Shown: positions 1,831 to 41,730, counted from the first letter of the stretch. The stretch: 45,023 bases of DNA from Betaproteobacteria bacterium (GCA_016183675.1 JACPEF010000227.1:1-45023), one strand, 5' to 3'. Made by a program: numbers and translations. Notes: generated from the letters alone by a model not told the origin.

Positions 1831-1898
1831 GTTCAAGGTTTCAGGTTCCAAGTTCCAGGTTCAGAAGACTCGTCAATCGTCAGTCATCAGTCGTCACC
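1831..1898 (-). repeat. Type I modular repeat (half copy) in the ahpC-ahpD spacer
   Basis: Read on the minus strand: GGTGACGACTGATGACTGACGATTGACGAGTCTTCTGAACCTGGAACTTGGAACCTGAAACCTTGAAC. This is heptamer GTGACGA-type units, then GTCTT, then GAACCTN units. It starts 5 nt after the ahpC stop. Confidence 0.8.
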
Positions 1899-2569: not shown

Positions 2570-3520
2570 GTGCCCGCCCTACCCTCGCTGCGCCAGTTCG
2601 GCTACCTGGTCGAGCTTGCCGAGCGCCTCAACTTCCGCCAGGCCGCCGAGGCGCAGTTCGTCACCCAATCCACGCTCTCGGCCGGCATCAAGGAGCTGGA
2701 GACGCTGCTCGGGGTGCAGCTGGTCGAGCGCGACAAGCGCAACGTCCGCCTCACCGCGGTGGGCGAAGAAGTGGTCGCGCGCGCCCGTGGGCTGCTCGCC
2801 GCGGCGAACGACCTCGCAGAAGCCGCGCGCAGCGCCGCCAAGCCGCTCACCGGCACGCTGCGGCTGGGCGCCATACCCACCATCGCGCCCTTCCTCCTGC
2901 CCGAGGTGCTGCCGCCGCTGCGCGAGGCCCATCCGTCGCTCAAGCTGTACCTCCGCGAGGACCTGACCGAGCGGCTGATTGAGCGGCTGCGCGCGGGGAG
3001 CCTCGACGTAGCGCTGATCGCGCTGCCCTACGACACCAGGGACCTCCACGTGCGCGAGCTGTTCCGCGACGAGTTCTGGTTCGTCGCGCGCGAGGACGAT
3101 CCCGCCGCCCGCGCCAAGGAGATCGCGATCCGCAGGCTCAATCCCGGCGAAGTGCTGCTGCTGGAGGAAGGTCACTGCCTGCGCGATCACGCCATCGCCG
3201 CCTGCGGCCCGCGGCGCGGCGCGTGGCAGTCCACGGTGGAAGCGACCAGCCTCCATACCCTGATCCAGATGGTCGAGGGAGGCCTGGGTGTCACGCTGCT
3301 GCCGGAGCTCACGCTGAAGGCGGGCATACTCAAGGGCACGCGGCTGGTTGCGCGACCGTTCGCCGCGCCCGCGCCCGCGCGCACGCTCGTACTGGTTGCT
3401 CGGCGCACGTCCCCCAGGCTGCGCGAGGTGGAACTGCTCGCCGAGTTCATCCTCGAGCAGCGGCGTCGTGGCGCGCGGCCCGGCATTCCGGCGCTGCGCC
3501 GCTCAGCCACAAAAGTGTGA
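2570..3520 (+). CDS. oxyR: LysR-family peroxide sensor OxyR
   Basis: 316-aa ORF with GTG start. N-terminal LysR HTH (LRQFGYLVELAERLNFRQAAEAQFVTQSTLSAGIKELE). Redox Cys pair context EEGHCLRDHAIAACG. Divergent from ahpCD. Confidence 0.85.
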   Translation: MPALPSLRQFGYLVELAERLNFRQAAEAQFVTQSTLSAGIKELETLLGVQLVERDKRNVRLTAVGEEVVARARGLLAAANDLAEAARSAAKPLTGTLRLGAIPTIAPFLLPEVLPPLREAHPSLKLYLREDLTERLIERLRAGSLDVALIALPYDTRDLHVRELFRDEFWFVAREDDPAARAKEIAIRRLNPGEVLLLEEGHCLRDHAIAACGPRRGAWQSTVEATSLHTLIQMVEGGLGVTLLPELTLKAGILKGTRLVARPFAAPAPARTLVLVARRTSPRLREVELLAEFILEQRRRGARPGIPALRRSATKV

Positions 3521-3585
3521 CCCGTGACCGGTGACCAGTAACTGGTTGCTGAACCCGGAACTTTGAACCTTGAACACGGAACGCG
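3517..3585 (+). repeat. Type I modular repeat (half copy) between oxyR and the glycosyltransferase gene
   Basis: GTGACCCGTGACCGGTGACCAG (the oxyR TGA at 3518-3520 lies inside the first unit). Then the palindrome ACCAGTAACTGGT. Then GAACCCGGAACTTTGAACCTTGAACACGGAACG, with period 7. Confidence 0.8.
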
Positions 3586-13316: not shown

Positions 13317-13375
13317 CGCTCCGCGACCCGGCGTCGGGCGATGAGCAGGGAAAACCGGGTCAGCTCAGTCTGTCC

Positions 13376-14272
13376 CTATTTTTCTTTGCCCAACTCCGAA
13401 AGGAAACTCTCGAGCGGGCGGGGCCGGACGCCCAGCGCGGCGGGGGCGCTCTGGGGATCACGGATCACCTTGTCCGTCTTCAGCAGTCGCACCTGATCGA
13501 CGGTCAGGGGCGCATGCGGCAGCCACTGCGTCGAATATGCCCCCGCTTCCGCGAGCGGGAACGGGATCGACACGAGCCACGGCCGGCGTCCGATGGCCCG
13601 GCACAGCCGCTCGATCAACTCGCGAAAGCTGAAAATTTCGCTCCCGCCGAGCTCGAACGCCCGGCCGGCGGTGCCCGGTTCCTCGAGCACCCTTGCCATG
13701 GCCTCGGCAACGTCCTCGACATGCATCGGCTGGAACCGGGTGCGTCCGCCGCCGATCAGGGGAATCGCGGGCGCACTGCGGGCGAGCTGGGTGAATCGCG
13801 TGAAGAAGTGATCGCCCGTCCCGTACACCAGCGCAGGGCGGACGAGGTTGGCGCCAGGGAAAGCCTCTCGGACGGCGTTCTCCCCGGCGGCCTTCGAGCG
13901 ATCAGCCAGCGACGGCGCGTCAAGGCCGATGCCCATCGCCGAAACGTGAACCAAGCGCTCGACGCCTGCAAGCCGCGCCGCTTCCGCAAGCCGGCCGGGG
14001 ATATCGCGATGCAATGAGTAGAACTGCTGCTCGCTCTTCGCGGCTGTGGTGCCGACCAGGTTGACGACCGCCGAGGCGCCGTCAACCGCGCGCTCGAGAG
14101 TGGATGGGTCCTCGATGCTGCCGACGACGCGTTCTATCTGCGGCGCCCGACCACCATCGTCTTCCGCGTGCCGCGAGACGATTCGCACCGGTACGCCGCG
14201 ACCCGCGAGCCGCTCCACCAGCCGGCGGCCGATGAAGCCGGTGCCTCCGACCACGGTGACCCGTAAGTCCAT
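13376..14272 (-). CDS. NAD(P)-binding extended SDR (NDUFA9 / NmrA-like epimerase-dehydratase family)
   Basis: 298-aa ORF. Rossmann motif VTVVGGTGFIGRRLVERL. Overall layout is typical of complex I NDUFA9-like proteins. Confidence 0.85.
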   Translation of the reverse strand: MDLRVTVVGGTGFIGRRLVERLAGRGVPVRIVSRHAEDDGGRAPQIERVVGSIEDPSTLERAVDGASAVVNLVGTTAAKSEQQFYSLHRDIPGRLAEAARLAGVERLVHVSAMGIGLDAPSLADRSKAAGENAVREAFPGANLVRPALVYGTGDHFFTRFTQLARSAPAIPLIGGGRTRFQPMHVEDVAEAMARVLEEPGTAGRAFELGGSEIFSFRELIERLCRAIGRRPWLVSIPFPLAEAGAYSTQWLPHAPLTVDQVRLLKTDKVIRDPQSAPAALGVRPRPLESFLSELGKEK

Positions 14273-14592: not shown

Positions 14593-14799
14593 TCACGCGG
14601 CTTTCAGATTGGTCGCGGAGATCTTGCCGTTGTTGCCCTTCTCCAGGTCGAACGAGACTTTCTGCTTCTCGCTCAGCGTGCCAAGACCCGCGCGCTCGAC
14701 CGCGGAGATGTGCACGAACACGTCCTTCGAGCCGTCATCGGGTTGAATGAAGCCGAAGCCTTTGGTGCTGTTGAAAAACTTTACGGTGCCGGTAGACAT
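14593..14799 (-). CDS. cspA: Cold-shock protein CspA family
   Basis: ATG at 14799 after [39 protein letters not shown] contains the RNP1 and RNP2 motifs. The longer ORF to 14916 has no support. Confidence 0.95.
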
Positions 14800-14980
14800 A
14801 ATGTCCTCCAGATGTGGCGTGGCCGCGCGCGAAAATGCGCGGGGCATCAAATTTACCTGTGGGAAAGGACCGAAAGTGCCAGCCGGAAATGAACTACAAA
14901 CAGACCCAAAGCGCATTCGACCCCGCCATTATGCGCCCAAAGCGCCGGCACGTATATGATTCCTTTCTCGGGGTGCAACT

Positions 14981-15048
14981 CATCACTCATCACCGGGTTT
15001 CAAGCCGGTCACCAGTAATCGTCACCATTATCTCGTCACCCATCACTG
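14981..15048. repeat. CATCAC/GTCACC short-period repeats in the cspA-infA divergent spacer
   Basis: CATCACTCATCACCGGGTTTCAAGCCGGTCACCAGTAATCGTCACCATTATCTCGTCACCCATCACTG. Confidence 0.6.
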
Positions 15049-23830: not shown

Positions 23831-24098
23831 GCGTGACTGGTGAATCGTGCCCAGTGACTCGAAAAGCCGTCAGATCGGGAGGTCGGGAGGGCGGGAGATC
23901 GTGAGACCGAAAAGACGGGAGATCGTGAGATCGGGAAGTCGTGAAAGGGAACTTCCATCTCCCGCGCTCACGCACTCACGCCCTCACGGATTTTGTGGCT
24001 CTCACGCCCTCACGGATTTTGTCGCCCTCACGCGCTCACGCTCTAACGCTCTAACGGAACTTGTCGCTCTCACGCTCTCACGCTCTCCCGCACTCACC
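23831..24098 (+). repeat. Type II composite 8-mer element, copy 1 (about 268 bp)
   Basis: GTGAC-like units (23831-23860), then GGGAGATCGTGAGA-type 8-mers (23871-23950), a centre GGGAACTTCCATCTCCC, then CTCACGCN 8-mers with three copies of the word CCCTCACGGAnnTTGTCGC (23963-24098). It ends on the stop codon of the downstream minus-strand gene. Confidence 0.8.
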
Positions 24099-24687
24099 TC
24101 TTGTGTTTGCCGATGCGCCAGCCGTGGCGAGCGAGATGCTGCTCGCCGAACGCCACCGGCTCCGCCTCGAGCGCGGGAGCGACGGTGTCGTTCCAGCGGT
24201 TTAGGAAACCGTTGATCGCCACCGCGCCCATGATCTCCACGATCTGCGCGTCGGTCCAGTGCCGCTTCATCCGCTCGAACAGCTCGTCGGTGACGGCGTT
24301 CGGCTGTGAGGCCGCGGCGACCGCGAAGTCGAGCGCGACGCGTTCGGCTTCGCTGTAGAGCGGGCTCGTTCGGTACTCGATCACCGCCTCGAGCTTCGCA
24401 TCGTTCACGCCGGCGCGGTGCGCCGCCTCGGCGGCGTGCGCCATGGAATAATTGCACCCGTGCGTGCGGCTCGCCATGTACGCCACGAGCCGCTTGAAGC
24501 CGATGTTCACCTCGCTCGCCGGGTCCCACACCGCGGAAGCGAGCTGGGCGAGCGCCTTCACGAGCTTCGGCTTGCGGCTCATGACGAGCGCGCTGTTGGG
24601 CACATAGCCCAGCAACCGCTTGAAGTTCTGGAAAGCTTCCTGCAGGTCGGGGTTCGCATCCGCCGGCAGCGGGTCCAGGCGTGCCAT
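24094..24687 (-). CDS. Carboxymuconolactone decarboxylase (AhpD-like) family protein
   Basis: ORF 24094..24693 has a GTG start overlapping the upstream stop as GTGA. I prefer the ATG at 24687, 5 nt after GGAG. The segment KRLVAYMASRTHGCNYSMAHAAE is typical of the CMD family. Confidence 0.85.
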   Translation of the reverse strand: MARLDPLPADANPDLQEAFQNFKRLLGYVPNSALVMSRKPKLVKALAQLASAVWDPASEVNIGFKRLVAYMASRTHGCNYSMAHAAEAAHRAGVNDAKLEAVIEYRTSPLYSEAERVALDFAVAAASQPNAVTDELFERMKRHWTDAQIVEIMGAVAINGFLNRWNDTVAPALEAEPVAFGEQHLARHGWRIGKHKR

Positions 24688-28140: not shown

Positions 28141-28330
28141 CCAGTGACGTGACCAGTGGCGGGCGACGGGAAATCGCTGCGAACCGTGAGTCGGGAGATC
28201 GTGAGATCCGGGAGCCGTGAGATCGTCAAATCGGGAGATCGTGAGGAGGTATTCCCTTCTCTCGCGCTCACGCTCTTACGCCCTCACGGAATTTGTCGCT
28301 CTCCCGCTCTGACGCTCTCGCGGCCTCACG
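28141..28330 (+). repeat. Type II composite 8-mer element, copy 2 (about 190 bp)
   Basis: CCAGTGACGTGACCAGTGG, then GGGAGATCGTGAGATCCGGGAGCCGTGAGATCGTCAAATCGGGAGATCGTGAGG, a centre AGGTATTCCC, then CGCGCTCACGCTCTTACGCCCTCACGGAATTTGTCGCTCTCCCGCTCTGACGCTCTCGCGGCCTCACG. Confidence 0.8.
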
Positions 28331-28374
28331 TCGGACTTCCGGCGCCCCTCATTCCCCCTCATCCCTCCGCGGTC

Positions 28375-28413
28375 CGCGCGTTGAACGGCGCCCTGCGTCC
28401 GTTCGAACGCGCG
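28375..28413. repeat. GTTGAACGG / CCGTTCGAAC palindrome, copy 2
   Basis: CGCGCGTTGAACGG (28375-28388) and CCGTTCGAACGCGCG (28399-28413). Compare with 18098-18138. Confidence 0.6.
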
Positions 28414-28539
28414 GAAATAAAGCGGCGGGTTGGTCCGTCCGCTTTATTCGGGAATAGAATGGCGACCCGGCCTGTTTATCGTGAGGCCTGCAAGGGCCCA
28501 AGGGCCGACCGGCTCGATCGAACATCCTGGAAGAGACAC

Positions 28540-29118
28540 ATGAATAAGCTCCGTTTTGCATGGCTTTTCAGCGCGCTTGCCCTGGTGGCCACCGCCGCCG
28601 ACGCCCAGACCGCGATGCGGGTGCGCGGCGCCATCACCGCCGTCGACGACAACGTGCTTTCGGTGAAATCCGCAGACGGCAGGAACGTGGCCATCCACCT
28701 CGCGGAAAAAACCGTCATCGTCTTCACCCAGCCGATTGCGCTCGGCGACATCAAGCCGGGCGACTTCCTCGGCGTCACCTCGTTGAGGCGCGACGACGGC
28801 ACCCTCACGGCGGTCGAGGTGCGCCGGTTTCCCAAGCCCCTCAACCCGGGCCACCGGCCCTTCGATGGCCGGAGCGATCAGACCATGACCAACGCCACGG
28901 TGTCCGCGATGGTCCAGTCCGGCAGCGGCCGCGAGCTGACCCTCGTCTACCCGGACGGGTCGCAGAAGATCGTCGTGCCGGAAAACGCGTCGATCTCGAT
29001 GCTCGTCCCGGGGGAGCGCTCGCAGCTCGTGCCCGGCGCGGCCGTGAACCTGACCGCCGCGCCCGGTGACGACGGCACAATGATCGCGCGGCGCATCCAG
29101 GTAAGCCCGGTCCGGTAG
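28540..29118 (+). CDS. Secreted beta-rich protein (two DUF5666-like repeats)
   Basis: ATG at 28540 inside ORF 28156..29118. Signal peptide MNKLRFAWLFSALALVATAADAQ. Repeated pattern G.IT.V....L.V...DG..V.......T.I........L.D.K.GD. The family call is tentative. Confidence 0.6.
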   Translation: MNKLRFAWLFSALALVATAADAQTAMRVRGAITAVDDNVLSVKSADGRNVAIHLAEKTVIVFTQPIALGDIKPGDFLGVTSLRRDDGTLTAVEVRRFPKPLNPGHRPFDGRSDQTMTNATVSAMVQSGSGRELTLVYPDGSQKIVVPENASISMLVPGERSQLVPGAAVNLTAAPGDDGTMIARRIQVSPVR

Positions 29119-29137: not shown

Positions 29138-29232
29138 GCGTGACGGGTGACCAAGGTCTTGTTCAAAGTTCAAAGTTCAAAGTTGCACGATGAACCCTGA
29201 ACCTTGAACGTTGAACCTGGAACCTGGAACAG
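29138..29232 (+). repeat. Type I modular element, full copy (GTGAC - GTCTT - GTTCAAA x3 - loop - GAACCTN x6)
   Basis: GCGTGACGGGTGACCAAGGTCTTGTTCAAAGTTCAAAGTTCAAAGTTGCACGATGAACCCTGAACCTTGAACGTTGAACCTGGAACCTGGAACAG. Begins 19 nt after the stop of the upstream + gene. Alignable with 32731-32848 on the minus strand. Confidence 0.8.
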
Positions 29233-29249
29233 CTCCTTCCCTCCGCCCT

Positions 29250-29288
29250 CAAAAACAGAACGCCGGCGAACCCGAAGGCTCCCGGCGT
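29250..29288 (-). terminator. Candidate rho-independent terminator (minus strand), about 260 nt downstream of the Bug gene stop
   Basis: Minus strand: ACGCCGG-GAGCCTTCGGGTTCG-CCGGCGT followed by TCTGTTTTTG. Confidence 0.5.
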
Positions 29289-29544
29289 CCGGCCGACTCT
29301 TGCCGTGCCATGCCGTTTACACCCCTATTGGGTACCGGATGCCATGGCGGCACCGGCCGGCGAGCACGGCAGCTGCCAAAAAGCAGCTTCGTTTGACCGG
29401 CTCGAGGGAGGGGGCCCTCACCGGCCATCGTCCCCGCGCCAGAGTATTACCCGGGGTCGGCACCCGGTTCTCCGGGGCAGCGCGAGGCAATTCCCTTTCT
29501 ACGCCTGTCCCGCCGGCGAGTTTTTGATCTGCGTCAAATTCCCG

Positions 29545-30522
29545 TCAATCAGCGCGGATGTTGTTCTCGCGCACCACTTTCCCCCAGCGCTCGATCTCGC
29601 TGATGAGGAATTTCTGCAGCGCCGCGGGGCTGCTGAGGGCGAGGTCCATGCCGAGCGTCTCGGTCATCTGCTTGCGCACGTCCGGCGCGTTGAACGCCTT
29701 GACCACCTCGGCGTGGAACTTGTCGAGGATCGGCTTGGGTATGCCGGCGGCCGTGAAGATCGCCCACCACGCGAGCGCCGAGAAGCCCGGGAAGCCCTGC
29801 TCCGCGAGCGCCGGCACGTCGGGCAACGCGTGCGATCGCTTGTCGCCGGTGACGGCGATGGCGCGCAGCTTGCCGCCCTTCACGTGCGGCGTGAGCAGCG
29901 CCACCGTGCCGATGGCGATCTCGACGTGGCCGCCGAGCGCGTCCACGGTCATCGGCCCGCCGCCCTTGTAGGGCACGTGCACGATCTTGAAGCCGCCCGC
30001 CTGCTGCACGAGCGTCACCGTCAGGTGCCCGAGGCTGCCGCTGCCGATCGAGCCGTAGGTGACCGTATCCGGCCTCGCTTTCGCCGCCTTGATCACGTCG
30101 CCGAAACCCCTGTACGGCTTCGCGGGATTGGTGACGATGGCCATCGGCGCGGTCCCGACCAGCATCACCGGCGCCAGGTCCTTCACGGTGTCGAATGGCA
30201 ACGGGATCAGCGACGGGTTGACCGCGTGCGTGTCGAAGACAAAGAGCCACGTGTAGCCGTCCGGCGACGCCTTGGCGGTGATCGCCGCCCCCATCGAGCC
30301 GGAGGCGCCCGGCCGGTTGTCCACGACGAACTGCTGGCCGAGCGACGCGTTGAGCTTGGCGCCCACCATGCGTGCCATCGGATCGGTCGTGCCGCCCGGC
30401 GGGAACGGGACGATGAACCGCACCGGTCTCGTCGGCCAGTCGGTTTTCTGCGCAACGGCCGGAAGCGATGCAAGCGCGGCGAGTGCCGCGATCGCGACGC
30501 GAAACAAAATGGAACGCATCAT
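29545..30522 (-). CDS. Bug/TctC-family periplasmic solute-binding protein (7 of 10)
   Basis: ATG at 30522 after AGGAGAGAATC. MMRSILFRVAIAALAALASLPAVAQKTDWPTRPVRFIVPFPPGGTTD. The longer ORF to 30645 runs through the repeat arrays. Confidence 0.9.
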   Translation of the reverse strand: MMRSILFRVAIAALAALASLPAVAQKTDWPTRPVRFIVPFPPGGTTDPMARMVGAKLNASLGQQFVVDNRPGASGSMGAAITAKASPDGYTWLFVFDTHAVNPSLIPLPFDTVKDLAPVMLVGTAPMAIVTNPAKPYRGFGDVIKAAKARPDTVTYGSIGSGSLGHLTVTLVQQAGGFKIVHVPYKGGGPMTVDALGGHVEIAIGTVALLTPHVKGGKLRAIAVTGDKRSHALPDVPALAEQGFPGFSALAWWAIFTAAGIPKPILDKFHAEVVKAFNAPDVRKQMTETLGMDLALSSPAALQKFLISEIERWGKVVRENNIRAD

Positions 30523-32356: not shown

Positions 32357-32367
32357 CCCCCTAAGAA

Positions 32368-32518
32368 GTGACGAATGCTGGTGACGATTACTGGTGACGG
32401 GTGCTGGTGACGGGTAAACAACGTTTTTCGTCACTATCTTTCGTCAGTTCCTTTCGTCACCATTTTTCATCACCATCATTCGTCACCATTAATCGTCACT
32501 TCTTTACTAATCGGTCAC
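32368..32518. repeat. Long inverted array: (CTGGTGACG)n facing (CGTCACN)n
   Basis: GTGACGAATGCTGGTGACGATTACTGGTGACGGGTGCTGGTGACGGGT (32368-32415), then a loop AAACAACGTTTTT, then TCGTCACTATCTTTCGTCAGTTCCTTTCGTCACCATTTTTCATCACCATCATTCGTCACCATTAATCGTCAC...CGGTCAC (to 32518). Confidence 0.8.
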
Positions 32519-32721
32519 TCGGGCTTGATGCCCGCCGCCTTGATCACCTTCGCCCACTTCGCCATGTCGGATCGAATGACGGCCGCGAATGCTTCCGGGG
32601 TATTCCCCACCGGCTCGGCGCCGCTGCTGAGAAAGCGTTTCCTGGTATCGGGAACCTTGAGCGCGTAGACCACGCCCTCGTGGAGTCTTGCGATGATGTC
32701 GCGCGGCGTGCCGGGGATGAG
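32515..32721 (-). pseudogene. 3' relic (last about 68 codons) of a Bug/TctC-family gene
   Basis: Not in the ORF track because there is no start codon. My minus-strand translation is LIPGTPRDIIARLHEGVVYALKVPDTRKRFLSSGAEPVGNTPEAFAAVIRSDMAKWAKVIKAAGIKPE*. This matches the family C-terminus (..GTP..I...L......P....R....G.EP....PE.F...I..E..KW..VI...GIK). The frame is closed upstream by TGA at 32743-32745, inside the neighbouring repeat element. Confidence 0.7.
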
Positions 32722-32730
32722 GCATGAGGG

Positions 32731-32848
32731 CCTGTTCCAGGTTCAACGTTCAAGGTTCTAGGTTCAAGGGTCAAGGTTTAGAGTTCAGGGTTCGTCGCGC
32801 AACTTTGAACTTTGAACTCAGAACTTTGAACAAGACTCCCGTCACCCC
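32731..32848 (-). repeat. Type I modular element, full copy
   Basis: Minus strand: GGGTGACGGGAGTCTTGTTCAAAGTTCTGAGTTCAAAGTTCAAAGTTGCGCGACGAACCCTGAACTCTAAACCTTGACCCTTGAACCTAGAACCTTGAACGTTGAACCTGGAACAGG. Begins 30 nt after the stop of the upstream minus-strand transporter gene. Confidence 0.8.
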
Positions 32849-32878: not shown

Positions 32879-34504
32879 TTACGCGCTGCGGAACTGGGTG
32901 ATCCGCGCAAAAAGGATGGCCGCGAACGGGAGCGCGAGCCCGATCACCGTCGTCGCGATGAGAAGCAGGCCGAGCTCGCTGTAGTCCGCCGGCACCTGGA
33001 TCGCGCCGCTCGCGGGGTCCTTGACCTCGCGCGTGACCGTGAAACCCTGGTTCAGGTACTTGGTGCCGAGCTGGGAGAGCGAGAGCGCGAGATTGGTGAA
33101 GGAAGCCATGACCGCGAAGAAGGTCGCCTTGAGGTTCGCGGGCGCGGAGCGCGCGATCCAGGCGAGCATCGGGATCATCGCGATCTGCCCGAGCGGGGAC
33201 TCGAGGGCGGTGTTCACCAGCGCGATAAAGCGCGCGTTCACCATGCCGCCCGTCACGGAGGCAGTCCACTCGTGAAGCCCGTAGTACATGCCGATGTACG
33301 GGGCTCCCAGCACGAAGCCGCAAACCGTGAGGAAGCCTATGACGTAGGCGATGGAGCGCTCGGCCATGAAGCGGCGGAAGATGAACATGCCGAAGAGCGT
33401 CAGCACGCTCCCGATCAGCGAGAGCACCGAGATGAACTGCTGGTCGAACTTCAACTCGTCGATCAACCACCAGGTGACGCCGGCGCCCGCGCCGGGAACG
33501 GCACGGAAAATGAAGATCACGATCGCGGTGCCCACCAGCGTCGCGCGCGCCTCCGGGTCGAGCTCGCGCGTGAGCTTCGCCACGAGGAAGGCGATGATCG
33601 CGAAGGAACCGAGGAAGATCACCTCCTGGTTGTAGCGGAAGTCGCCCAGGCCCATGGTGAGCGTGAAGACGACGAAGAAGAGGCTTCCGCCGAGGATCCA
33701 CCAGTTGGGGGCGGGGGGCTCCCCGGGCTCGGAAACGAGCGCGCGCACCTGCTCCGCGCTCAGGCCCTGCGCGAGGAGCCGCCGCTTCTCGCGCGCCTTC
33801 AGTATCGCCGCGACGACCACCCCCAGCACCGAGATCGCGGGGATCGCGAGCGCCATGAGGTAGATGTCGCGGTAGAGGCGCGCCTTCCCGGCTTCGGGCC
33901 ACTCCTGCGTACCGGCGAATAGATAGACGTTGGCGAGCGCGACCAGCACCGTGCCGCCGATGATCGCGACGCGCCCGAGCGTCTGCATCGTGGTGTGCAT
34001 GAGCTTGCGGTTCTCGGGGTCTATCGGGCGGCCCTCAACGTCCGCCTTCGGCACGGCCTCGACGGTCATCGCGTCCGCCACCACGTCCTGAAGCACGTAG
34101 CCGACCGGCGCGAGGAGCTCCGCCACTACGAACCACGCCTCGACCGGCATCACCGCGGCCATCGCCGAGCGCTCGCCGATCAGCCCCGCCATGATCAGCA
34201 GGCTCGCGGCGACGAGGAATGCGCCGAGGTAGACGAGAGAGCTCTTCCAGCGCCAGATGAGGTCCACGAGGTGCCCGAGCGGCATCTTCAGCGCCCACGG
34301 GATCCCGGCCCAGAAGCCGAGCGCGGCGAGGAACGCGGCGGAAAGGCCGAGGTAGTCCTTGACAAAGAAGACACCGACGATGCCCGTGAGCCCCGAGATG
34401 CCGGCCGCCATGTAGACCATGAGCGGCGGGAGATAGGAGAGGCGCAGCTCGCGCCCCAGCTCGAGGATGTTGCGGTCTATCCAGCGCAGCGCGGCGGCCA
34501 GCAT
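32879..34504 (-). CDS. Polytopic MFS-like transporter (resembles the folate/biopterin BT1 family)
   Basis: 541-aa ORF with about 12 hydrophobic segments. The N-terminal LSYLPPLMVYMAAGISGL..FFVKDYLGLSAAFLAALGFWAGIPWALKMPLGHLVD resembles the BT1 signature as I recall it. Confidence 0.7.
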   Translation of the reverse strand: MLAAALRWIDRNILELGRELRLSYLPPLMVYMAAGISGLTGIVGVFFVKDYLGLSAAFLAALGFWAGIPWALKMPLGHLVDLIWRWKSSLVYLGAFLVAASLLIMAGLIGERSAMAAVMPVEAWFVVAELLAPVGYVLQDVVADAMTVEAVPKADVEGRPIDPENRKLMHTTMQTLGRVAIIGGTVLVALANVYLFAGTQEWPEAGKARLYRDIYLMALAIPAISVLGVVVAAILKAREKRRLLAQGLSAEQVRALVSEPGEPPAPNWWILGGSLFFVVFTLTMGLGDFRYNQEVIFLGSFAIIAFLVAKLTRELDPEARATLVGTAIVIFIFRAVPGAGAGVTWWLIDELKFDQQFISVLSLIGSVLTLFGMFIFRRFMAERSIAYVIGFLTVCGFVLGAPYIGMYYGLHEWTASVTGGMVNARFIALVNTALESPLGQIAMIPMLAWIARSAPANLKATFFAVMASFTNLALSLSQLGTKYLNQGFTVTREVKDPASGAIQVPADYSELGLLLIATTVIGLALPFAAILFARITQFRSA

Positions 34505-34516
34505 GGGACGCTCAGG

Positions 34517-34836
34517 GATGAGTGACGAAACTAACGTGAGGGCGTGAGAGCGTCAGGGCGATAAGTTCCGTGAGGGCGTAAGAGCGTGAGCGCGACAGAA
34601 CCCGTGAGGGCGTTAGGGCGAGAGAGCGTGAGAGGGACAAGATCCGTGAGGGCGTAAGAGCGGGAGCGCGGGAGAGCGACAGCGACCCTCTGAACGTTCC
34701 ATCTCACCATTTCACGATCTCACGATCTCCCGGTTTCTCTCGATCTCACGACCTCTCGATCTCAGAGTCTTTCGATCTCCCGATCTCACGGTTGTTCCGG
34801 TCACTGGTCACCGGTCACCGGTCACTGGTCACCGGT
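34517..34836 (-). repeat. Type II composite 8-mer element, copy 3 (reverse orientation, about 320 bp) with a GTCACYG heptamer block
   Basis: Plus strand: CGTGAGGGCGTGAGAG-type units with three GCGAnAnnnnCCGTGAGGG words (34535-34680), then a centre, then GATCTCACGATCTCCC-type units (34702-34790), then GTCACTGGTCACCGGTCACCGGTCACTGGTCACCGG (34797-34835) abutting the TPR gene stop. Confidence 0.8.
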
Positions 34837-36382: not shown

Positions 36383-36612
36383 CCGGGGCGCCGTGAGATC
36401 GTGAAGTCGGGAAATCGGGAGATTGAAAAGCCGGGAGATCGGGAGTTCGGGAGATCGGGAGATCGTGAACTCGAAGAATATCGTCCCTCTCACGCTCTCA
36501 CGCCCTCACGGAACTTGTCGCCCTCCCGCGCTCACGCTCTCACCCTCTAACACCCTGACGCTCTCACGGATTCTGTCGCTCTCCCGCCCTCACGCTCTCC
36601 CGCTCTCACGTC
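36378..36612 (+). repeat. Type II composite 8-mer element, copy 4 (about 235 bp)
   Basis: Starts at the relic stop (CAGTGACCGG). CGTGAGATCGTGAAGTCGGGAAATCGGGAGAT...GGGAGATCGGGAGATCGTGAAC (36392-36473), a centre TCGAAGAATATCG, then CTCTCACGCTCTCACGCCCTCACGGAACTTGTCGCC...CTCTCACGGATTCTGTCGCTCTCCCGCCCTCACGCTCTCCCGCTCTCACG (36485-36610). Confidence 0.8.
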
Positions 36613-41583: not shown

Positions 41584-41682
41584 AGCGCCCAATGTGCCGC
41601 ATAGGGTAGACCGCCTCCCCCTCCCGCGCAAACTCTGATGAGGCGTGGCCCGTGACGACGTAAAGCCTTTCACCCATTCAAT

Positions 41683-41730
41683 CGTTCACCCGTTCATCGT
41701 TCCGCGTTCATCGTTCATCGTTGCCCGTCA
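41683..41730 (-). repeat. CGTTCAT (GATGAAC) heptamer array starting at the DUF1330 gene stop
   Basis: CGTTCACCCGTTCATCGTTCCGCGTTCATCGTTCATCGTTGCCCGTCA. The stop (41728-41730) is the last unit on the plus strand. Confidence 0.65.

Follow-up and report, generated by a model that had tools for sequence, protein, structure and literature searches.

Heptanucleotide-array mosaics with a recurrent module order and stop-codon polarity in an uncultured Burkholderiales lineage

The contig JACPEF010000227.1 of a Betaproteobacteria bacterium (GCA_016183675.1), whose whole length of 45,023 nt we call the window, carries an extragenic repeat element, Type I, of which the first full copy lies at 29138-29232 (+). 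This element is a mosaic of slippage-type heptamer arrays with a recurrent order of modules, a polarity relative to stop codons and, in its full form only, the potential to form a hairpin; its turnover is rapid, and it is found in association with rearrangements. Its orientation is genuinely non-random, and it may have an RNA-level role at the 3' ends of transcripts.

Read along the sense strand, the full form consists of GTGAY units, a G(G/T)CTT linker, (GTTCAAN)n, an apex, (NNNGAAC)n and a CCCTCA-type tail, and in the window it has (GTTCAAA)3-4, a 10-nt apex and (NNNGAAC)6-9. Copy 1, delimited by its sequence, its tandem-repeat arrays and its fold, begins 20 nt from the stop codon (29116-29118) of a DUF5666 gene. 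It comprises GTGACGG/GTGACCA units (29140-29154), the GTCTT linker (29156-29160), (GTTCAAA)x3 as left arm (29161-29181), the apex GTTGCACGAT (29182-29191) and (GAACNNN)x6 as right arm (29192-29232), followed by a C-rich CTCCTTC/CCTCCGC/CCTCAAA tail (29233-29262), all on the plus strand. Copy 2 (32731-32848, -) has the same module order, with four units in the left arm and nine in the right; it begins approximately 30 nt downstream of the stop codon of a BT1 gene (32879-32881), and a CCCTCA-type tail follows it as well (about 32711-32730, -). Two half copies consist of GTGAY and TGAAC arrays only, without the GTTCAAA arm. The half copy at 3517-3585 (+), composed of (GTGACCN)x3, GTAACTGGTTGC and (TGAACNN)x5, occupies the entire spacer between an oxyR-like gene and a glycosyltransferase gene, and the oxyR stop codon (TGA, 3518-3520) lies within its first GTGAC unit. 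The other, at 1831-1898 (-), composed of (TGACGAN)x4, GTCTTC and (TGAACCT-like)x5, occupies the ahpC-ahpD spacer, with the AhpC stop codon at 1904-1906. These four copies, with their shared blocks, are where the first-pass annotation of this DNA had placed them, and each starts, as it had said, close to the stop codon of a gene on the same strand (-3 to about 33 nt after it). Pfam assigns the upstream genes to DUF5666, BT1, a LysR-type regulator divergent from ahpC, which we call oxyR-like, and AhpC. A fifth locus beyond these four, a (GAACGAT/GAACGGG)n array at 41669-41723 (-), stands downstream of a co-oriented DUF1330 gene, about 5-11 nt from its stop codon. The GC content of the element is 44-57%, against 65.4% for the contig.

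When copies 1 and 2 are aligned, 80 of the 87 ungapped columns are identical (92%), including an identical run of 25 nt, and the indels that separate the copies are mostly exact 7-nt steps. The alignment scores 97 in the forward direction and 20 with one copy reverse-complemented, so the orientation of the full copies is well defined. The apex and the 5' flank are confined to these two copies among all loci compared, and copies 1 and 2 are true duplicates. The pattern (GAACNNN)x4, with one mismatch or fewer, has 16 matches at five loci of the window, where shuffled sequence gives an expectation of 0.00. A scan of 185,579 representative genomes (596 Gb, a set without the source genome, in which the window's own copies were not recovered) for the apex (TTCAAAGTTGCNCGANGAAC) returned nine matches, all of them attributable to chance and in unrelated taxa. 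Copy 1 had no BLAST match among plasmids, a search in which the low-complexity filter probably masks it, and Rfam 15 gave no match at gathering score anywhere in the window. Neither the exact AhpC nor the exact DUF5666 protein sequence is on record, and the repeat strings were not found in the literature searched.

The element had been presented as something distinct from random microsatellites. This distinction does not survive, since the element is itself built of slippage-type arrays that differ by 7-nt indels, and it is one family among the arrays that fill much of the contig's intergenic DNA. Tandem Repeats Finder returned 86 rows for the window, with period-7 arrays of 3-9 units in all copies; period-7/8 arrays make up 14% of intergenic but 0.3% of genic bases and are present in 16 of 41 spacers. 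The recurrent heptamer families are GTGAY-NN, GAACNNN/GTTCAAN, CCTTCTG and CCCTCAT, and there are octamer families (CGTGAGAT / GGGAGATC and CTCACGCN) as well as 13-mers containing GTGAC. The octamers form a mosaic of their own, found at 23872-24101, 28185-28330, 34535-34836 and 36395-36610 of the window and at 2472-2674 of the related contig L010, in which (CGTGAGAT / GGGAGATC)n precedes its complement (CTCACGCN)n and a higher-order periodicity of 26-58 nt is superimposed. The GTGAG arm is the leading one in all five copies, often with (GTGACCG)n before the mosaic and (CCCTCAT)n after it. The 13-mers form inverted arrays at 32362-32510, (GTGACGAGTGCTG)x3.5 and (TTTCGTCACCATC)x5, between a hydrolase gene and a TctC fragment; these fold at -59.6 kcal/mol (z -7.9) and place GTGAC on the sense strand of each flanking gene, and the same family follows the orthologous TctC pseudogene in another contig (L140, 3271-3322). 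Type I is therefore one mosaic among several array families and has no stand-alone unit. The earlier description of a defined unit holds for the order of its modules, which recurs in two further contigs (L011 and L032, below), but not for its independence.

Position and orientation are where the element departs from chance. All seven Type-I-like composites (the four window copies, 41669-41723 and the copies in L011 and L032) follow a co-oriented stop codon, which in the binomial test that the first-pass annotation had proposed gives p = 0.016. Its claim that the element always stands 3' of a co-oriented gene is borne out by every copy in the window, although these number only four or five, and both full copies lie between convergent genes, so that each copy likewise follows a gene of the opposite strand. 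Orientation is defined by the GTGAY array. Counting the window together with its relatives, approximately 15 of 15 such arrays that lie no more than 30 nt past a stop codon read GTGAY on the sense strand, and beside start codons it is the complement that is on the sense strand. Arrays whose unit contains a stop triplet on the sense strand only outnumber those with one on the antisense strand only by 19 to 2 within 30 nt after stops, and by 12 to 2 when arrays containing the gene's own stop codon are dropped; within 30 nt before starts the numbers are 2 and 8 (Fisher's exact test for the polarity, p = 2e-4). A period of 7 is not divisible by 3, so three units in a row give a stop in every frame; in three of the four copies, all frames are closed within 30 nt of the gene's end.

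Polarity relative to both stop and start codons could also mean that the arrays are bound as RNA by a protein or by the ribosome, with cold-shock-domain proteins, S1, CsrA or the 16S rRNA 3' tail as partners and the hairpin secondary. The 7-nt register would offer single-stranded binding sites at repeated intervals, and binding would tune how ribosomes are released or re-initiate, or how mRNA decays, at gene boundaries; GGUGAU-type units are complementary to the 16S tail. The half copies, which have no hairpin and lie 4-16 nt upstream of the next start codon, would suit such a role, and a similar proposal has been made for TAACTGA heptamers upstream of starts in Beggiatoaceae (PMC4679880). By eye, GGTGAT, GAAGGCA and GGGAGATC resemble Shine-Dalgarno (SD) sequences, and the complements ATCACCC, CCTTCTG and CCCTCAT resemble anti-SD sequences. 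However, the GTTCAAA and TGAACCT units have neither resemblance, the unit sequences are too diverse for a single binder, the arrays are dispensable in close relatives, and the partners named are no more than candidates. We consider this explanation quite unlikely.

The full copies fold into the long imperfect hairpin that had been claimed for the element. On the strand given in the first-pass annotation, copy 1 folds at -34.7 kcal/mol (z -3.9) and copy 2 at -34.0 kcal/mol (z -1.6), and z scores of -3.8 and -2.7 were obtained for the L011 and L032 copies. The central arrays of the full copies are complementary at 5-6 of 7 positions, giving helices of 5-7 bp that are broken once per heptad and amount to about 30 bp in all, with further pairing between the outer GTGACGGG block and the terminal CCTGGAAC. 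There is a single compensated variant: the altered units GUUCUG and UAGAAC of copy 2 lie opposite each other and pair. When the arm units were pooled, mirrored order gave 47% against 43% for shuffled order, with 47 of 2000 shuffles as good, which lends weak support to a mirrored order of the arm units. The half copies, by contrast, have no element-wide hairpin: 1831-1898 shows no such structure (-7.7 kcal/mol, z -0.3), and 3517-3585 has a local 10-bp hairpin only (-21.1 kcal/mol).

We considered an intrinsic terminator as the identity of the element and rejected it, as the U-tract is missing after both full copies. The full copies do have a hairpin, which has 44-48% GC in a contig of 65% GC and is interrupted every 7 nt. 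A canonical terminator is present elsewhere in the contig at 14541-14575 (-), CCCCGC-TTCG-GCGGGG followed by U8, after the cold-shock gene csp (14593-14799, -). A scan for intrinsic terminators found nothing at the elements, and a consensus scan missed this textbook example. Immediately beside copy 1, a GC-rich hairpin followed by UGUUUUUG (U5) can be read at 29243-29290 (-) and folds at -30.3 kcal/mol with a z score of only -1.25. It looks like the terminator of the convergent TctC gene, suggesting that transcripts of the minus strand end short of the element and that copy 1 is left to the DUF5666 transcript. The adjoining stretch at 29300-29544, some 250 nt of non-coding sequence on the downstream side of that TctC gene (29545-30522, -), contains no tandem repeats and matches nothing in Rfam.

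Where they carry a label, the best BT1 homologues come from Burkholderiales or Betaproteobacteria metagenome-assembled genomes (MAGs), and the host is an uncultured Burkholderiales lineage. Period-7/8 arrays occur at 0.87 per kb in the window, at 1.33 per kb in L010 (BT1 96% identical to that of the window) and at 0.67 per kb in L011 (84%), and they fall to 0.05 and 0 per kb in L014 and L016 (both about 80%); dense arrays are therefore specific to a clade. The unit families of the window are also found in L010 and L011, and L011 carries a third full Type-I-like mosaic (13366-13480). There, the stop codon of an HD-domain gene lies within GTGACGAAGTGACC, which is followed by GGCTTC, (GTTCAAG)x6, a loop, (CTGGAAC / TTTGAAC)x4 and (CCCTCAT)x3, the last being the CCCTCA-type tail also seen in the window. 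A fourth example, in an unrelated metagenome contig of 66% GC (L032, 3845-3935), begins 7 nt after the stop codon of a co-oriented open reading frame (ORF) and consists of (GGTGANT)x5, GGAAG in place of the G(G/T)CTT linker, (GTTCAAN)x4 and (GTTGAAC)x3. The TPR-BT1 spacer is orthologous in the window and L010 and has the same module order in both, with different unit numbers, as does the octamer copy upstream of BT1, whose unit numbers differ from those of its L010 orthologue. Four other samples from a single study carry the ahpC-ahpD half copy in identical form, with no polymorphism among them.

A metagenome scan for three tandem GTTCAAN units found at least 120 contigs (L017-L136). Among the matches listed, to which the counts in this paragraph refer, the GC content of the contigs ranges from 0.34 to 0.70, and arrays stand in convergent rather than divergent spacers by 14 to 3. 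A GTTC array is followed within 80 nt by a GAAC array in 20 contigs, against 4 with the everted order (p = 0.0015). Both arm orders are inverted repeats and both are symmetric under reverse complementation, so that neither property accounts for the 20:4 bias. In L044, a (GTTCAAA)n-loop-(TTTGAAC)n hairpin (1387-1481) fills the spacer between tRNA-Val (1485-1560, -) and tRNA-Asp (1302-1378, -) and is very probably part of a tRNA precursor transcript; from the flanking translations, other GTTCAAN hairpins apparently lie in atpA-atpG and nusG-rplK spacers. In another contig (L069, about 100-200), (GGTGATG)x3 and then (GTTCAAG)x4 stand between sequences (GGGCAAGCCCGCTCCCACAG) that appear to resemble Pseudomonas REP elements. 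A rule placing GTTCAA near stops and TTGAAC near starts (p = 2e-6) was also considered and was rejected, because hairpin pairs fit both strands and because the ORF caller had used TTG and TGA inside the arrays, which makes the 5' part of the result an artefact. When only single arrays at 3' ends are counted, the GTTCAA rule drops to 15:8, which is not significant.

The explanation that we favour, tentatively and with a little less than even confidence, is that Type I is a slippage-generated, recombination-spread mosaic that is tolerated by its host and possibly used as stop-and-hairpin punctuation in 3' untranslated regions (UTRs). Arrays would grow and shrink by replication slippage in 7-nt steps, and whole mosaics would be duplicated or moved by recombination between arrays, which would leave them at rearrangement junctions. 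They would survive mainly downstream of genes, where they would be transcribed as 3' UTR. There, TGA-bearing units may offer three-frame stops within about 30 nt, and the hairpin may serve as a non-canonical 3'-end structure, either an exonuclease barrier, a factor-dependent insulator between convergent genes or both. Such a role would be likened to that of REP/BIME in enterobacteria, and not to that of a classical intrinsic terminator.

Several observations weigh against a use of this kind, and they temper the RNA-level role that had been proposed from orientation. The folding has no preference for the sense strand, with sense and antisense energies of -34.7 and -36.3 kcal/mol for copy 1, -34.0 and -40.2 for copy 2, -50.0 and -45.8 for L011, and -59.2 and -68.2 for L010. 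The arms differ systematically at the seventh position, with mirrored units at 0 of 7 in the window copies; this recurrent mismatch, an A.C on the strand given in the first-pass annotation and a G.U on the opposite one, implies that the pairing of the arms has not been optimised. No U-tract or T-run follows either full copy on either strand. Seven arrays contain the gene's own stop codon, which makes part of the stop-triplet polarity automatic, and single GTTCAAN arrays show no significant bias between sense and antisense (19:13 among the matches listed). The site 3' of BT1 is also inconstant. L010 has a different heptamer hairpin there, (NNTCAGT)x7, a loop and (NNACTGC)x8, at -59 kcal/mol; L011 has a short GTCACC palindrome and CCCTCAT units; and L140 has GCGTGACTGAT units and CATCCCT units, with GTGAC arrays only. 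In L147, whose AhpD is 89% identical, the ahpC-ahpD spacer is 27 nt long and contains no array. No particular sequence is thus conserved. What is retained at gene ends is the presence of arrays of some kind, and at least one of the half copies can be dispensed with. Finally, only two or three homologous full copies are known, their repetitive arms leave the register of an alignment ambiguous, and genes were called roughly, by GC at third codon positions or by ORFs, both in the window and at the metagenome loci. The intercistronic processing that had been suggested for the half copies is unlikely, since they have no hairpin and the ahpC-ahpD copy is missing in L147.

Many of these observations are what would be expected of the main rival explanation, functionless DNA placed by purifying selection, which we regard as a serious possibility although on balance a doubtful one. 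The arrays would be a neutral or selfish by-product of slippage and the orientation rule would come from filtering. Duplicating a heptamer that holds the stop codon leaves the protein as it was, an array with every frame closed would do no harm at the end of a gene, and start-like or Shine-Dalgarno-like arrays would be purged upstream of genes; the hairpins would arise by template-switch inverted duplication and be tolerated. Rapid turnover agrees with this, in that the ahpC-ahpD array is absent at 89% AhpD identity, a different repeat family stands after BT1 at 96% identity and unit numbers differ in the TPR-BT1 spacer. So do the 7-nt indels between the copies, the seven arrays that include the stop codon itself, the unoptimised pairing without strand preference and the unbiased single GTTCAAN arrays, and an excess of heptamer simple sequence repeats (SSRs) in intergenic DNA has been put down to polymerase slippage in published work (PMC4679880, PMC4692102). 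However, the modules recur in the same order at unrelated loci and in other organisms, the polarity remains when the arrays that contain the gene's own stop codon are set aside, the arm order among the matches listed goes beyond what pure slippage predicts, and the array density seen in the intergenic DNA of the window is kept across the clade.

A stronger claim, which we consider unlikely, would be that the arrays amount to a clade-wide, selected grammar of punctuation, with TGA arrays after stops, complementary arrays as hairpin and pyrimidine-rich anti-SD-like arrays before starts, which a factor of 7-nt register, or the ribosome through its 16S tail, would recognise in the RNA. If this were true, the (GTTCAAN)n-loop-(NTTGAAC)n hairpin would be a widespread, undescribed RNA element and no mutational accident.

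The surroundings of the two full copies bear on their origin. In two relatives, BT1 and the DUF5666 gene are directly convergent, one with a spacer of 86 nt and the other with a 100-N gap after the BT1 stop, and other relatives have BT1, a cyclase gene, a decayed TctC gene and then a 13-mer array as in the window. In the window, a 3.6-kb segment lies between the DUF5666 and BT1 genes, with inverted Type I copies at its two ends; it holds genes for a TctC receptor, a protein without assigned identity, a hydrolase and a TctC fragment. This fragment, a C-terminal remnant of about 70 aa (32515-32727, -), lies 4 nt from the 3' end of copy 2. Because inverted copies bracket the segment and copy 2 abuts the truncated TctC gene, the copies mark rearrangement junctions, and their placement fits recombination between dispersed arrays. 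The segment was also considered as a transposon, a candidate rejected for its gene content, which includes no transposase.

Two further explanations draw on the same arrangement. If Type I were a non-autonomous mobile element of the miniature inverted-repeat transposable element (MITE) or REP kind, its arms would be terminal inverted repeats and its transposase would lie elsewhere; two inverted copies, 92% identical and 3.5 kb apart around cargo-like genes, and an extragenic position 3' of genes like that of REP elements, would agree with it. We hold this to be extremely improbable, since no transposase, RAYT or integrase is found among the genes of the 45-kb window, no convincing target-site duplication can be read in the sequence at either full copy, copy length varies in 7-nt steps, and the apex and flank were not found at the other loci compared or in the 596 Gb of representative genomes, the set without the source genome. 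Alternatively, the element may act as DNA, as a recombination hot spot, a replication pause site or a binding site, either of nucleoid proteins or, as shown for some BIMEs, of gyrase, in which case its placement between convergent genes would reflect supercoiling. Hairpin potential that is equal on both strands, the copies flanking the rearranged segment with one abutting a truncated gene, and an assembly gap directly after the BT1 stop in one relative all point this way, but regularly spaced mismatches make the extrusion of a cruciform less likely, a palindrome is missing from the half copies, and a polarity relative to stops and starts is hard to account for without gene expression. This, too, is very unlikely in our view. 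The gap itself (L139, 4183-4281; GCA_023266245.1, JAHFRO010000112.1) is a run of approximately 100 N that begins some 8 nt past the BT1 stop codon, between BT1 and the DUF5666 gene, and a short-read assembly broken by repeat arrays would look like this.

The genes of the contig encode mostly TctC receptors and hydrolases. The arrays generate long spurious ORFs in this high-GC sequence (28156-28540, 23847-24215 and others); a 320-aa ORF at 28156-29118, for example, starts within octamer arrays, and the real start of the DUF5666 gene is probably 28540. Upstream of the cold-shock gene, some 180-240 nt from its start, there are GTGAC-type arrays (14978-15040).

An excess of heptamers in the intergenic DNA of scattered bacteria has been known since 1990-2007, with no accepted function or origin, and the present contig is an unusually dense case, with a fixed order of modules, a measurable polarity relative to stops and starts, and copies at rearrangement junctions. 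If this polarity extends genome-wide, the question of why heptamers are used turns into one about the ending or insulation of transcripts, the catching of read-through ribosomes, or a residue of slippage left by purifying selection. In practical terms, such arrays break assemblies, as at the 100-N gap, and inflate the number of spurious ORFs in high-GC MAGs.

Compared with known systems, the element lacks the U-tract of intrinsic terminators, the consensus unit of REP, the target duplication of MITEs and any match to Rfam families. By analogy, it would work most like REP/BIME or BOX mosaics, while being a member of neither. REP/BIME elements of enterobacteria and pseudomonads, like Type I, are extragenic, stand mostly 3' of genes and form imperfect palindromes in mosaics, and all copies of Type I are extragenic after a co-oriented stop. 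In 3' UTRs, REP/BIME are reported to stabilise the upstream mRNA, attenuate transcription and affect translation termination near the stop codon, findings said to go back to Espeli in 2001 and Liang in 2015. Each REP, however, is one unit of about 35 nt whose conserved head is recognised by a RAYT transposase, whereas the arms of Type I are arrays of 7-nt units, and no REP-like consensus was seen in the four copies. The BOX elements of Streptococcus pneumoniae are intergenic mosaics of boxA, a variable boxB and boxC that form long stable hairpins. They share with Type I the modular mosaic, the varying number of internal modules and the long hairpin, and differ in having non-heptameric modules of 45-60 nt and a Firmicutes host; we know of no relation of BOX to stop codons.

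The closest likeness in construction is to the cyanobacterial STRR, reportedly described by Mazel et al. in 1990, and to the GGGAATC arrays of Xanthomonas and the GGGGAYT arrays of Nostoc. These, too, are tandem 7-nt units strongly confined to intergenic DNA, with many arrays per genome; they vary in length and sequence between close relatives, occasionally form inverted pairs able to make stem-loops, and have no established function. Their unit sequences are different, and Type I has no G-quadruplex potential, concatenates GTGAY, GTTCAAN, NTTGAAC and CCCTCAN in a fixed order, has a strong stop-codon polarity and belongs to an uncultured Burkholderiales host. The occasional inverted pairs have been described for the Xanthomonas GGGAATC arrays (PMC4692102), and prokaryotic satellites have been surveyed in general (PMC6749651). 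TAACTGA direct repeats of marine Beggiatoaceae, some Cyanobacteria and Bacteroidetes resemble Type I as intergenic heptamers with a fixed position at the boundaries of coding sequences, a patchy spread across phyla and a TGA in the unit, and a post-transcriptional role has been proposed for them from position alone (PMC4679880). Those arrays stand just upstream of starts and are almost never inverted (PMC4679880), whereas the arrays of Type I follow stops and come as inverted pairs. Among heptanucleotide long SSRs, treated by Mrazek (2007) as represented in PMC4679880, Type I finds its place, with tandem units beyond chance, intergenic enrichment, and variation in unit number and sequence. What is new in it is that several unit families are joined in a fixed order, that the arrays are polar with respect to stop codons, and that it is found in an uncultured Burkholderiales clade; the element itself is a variant within the known, poorly understood bacterial repeats rather than a new class of RNA.

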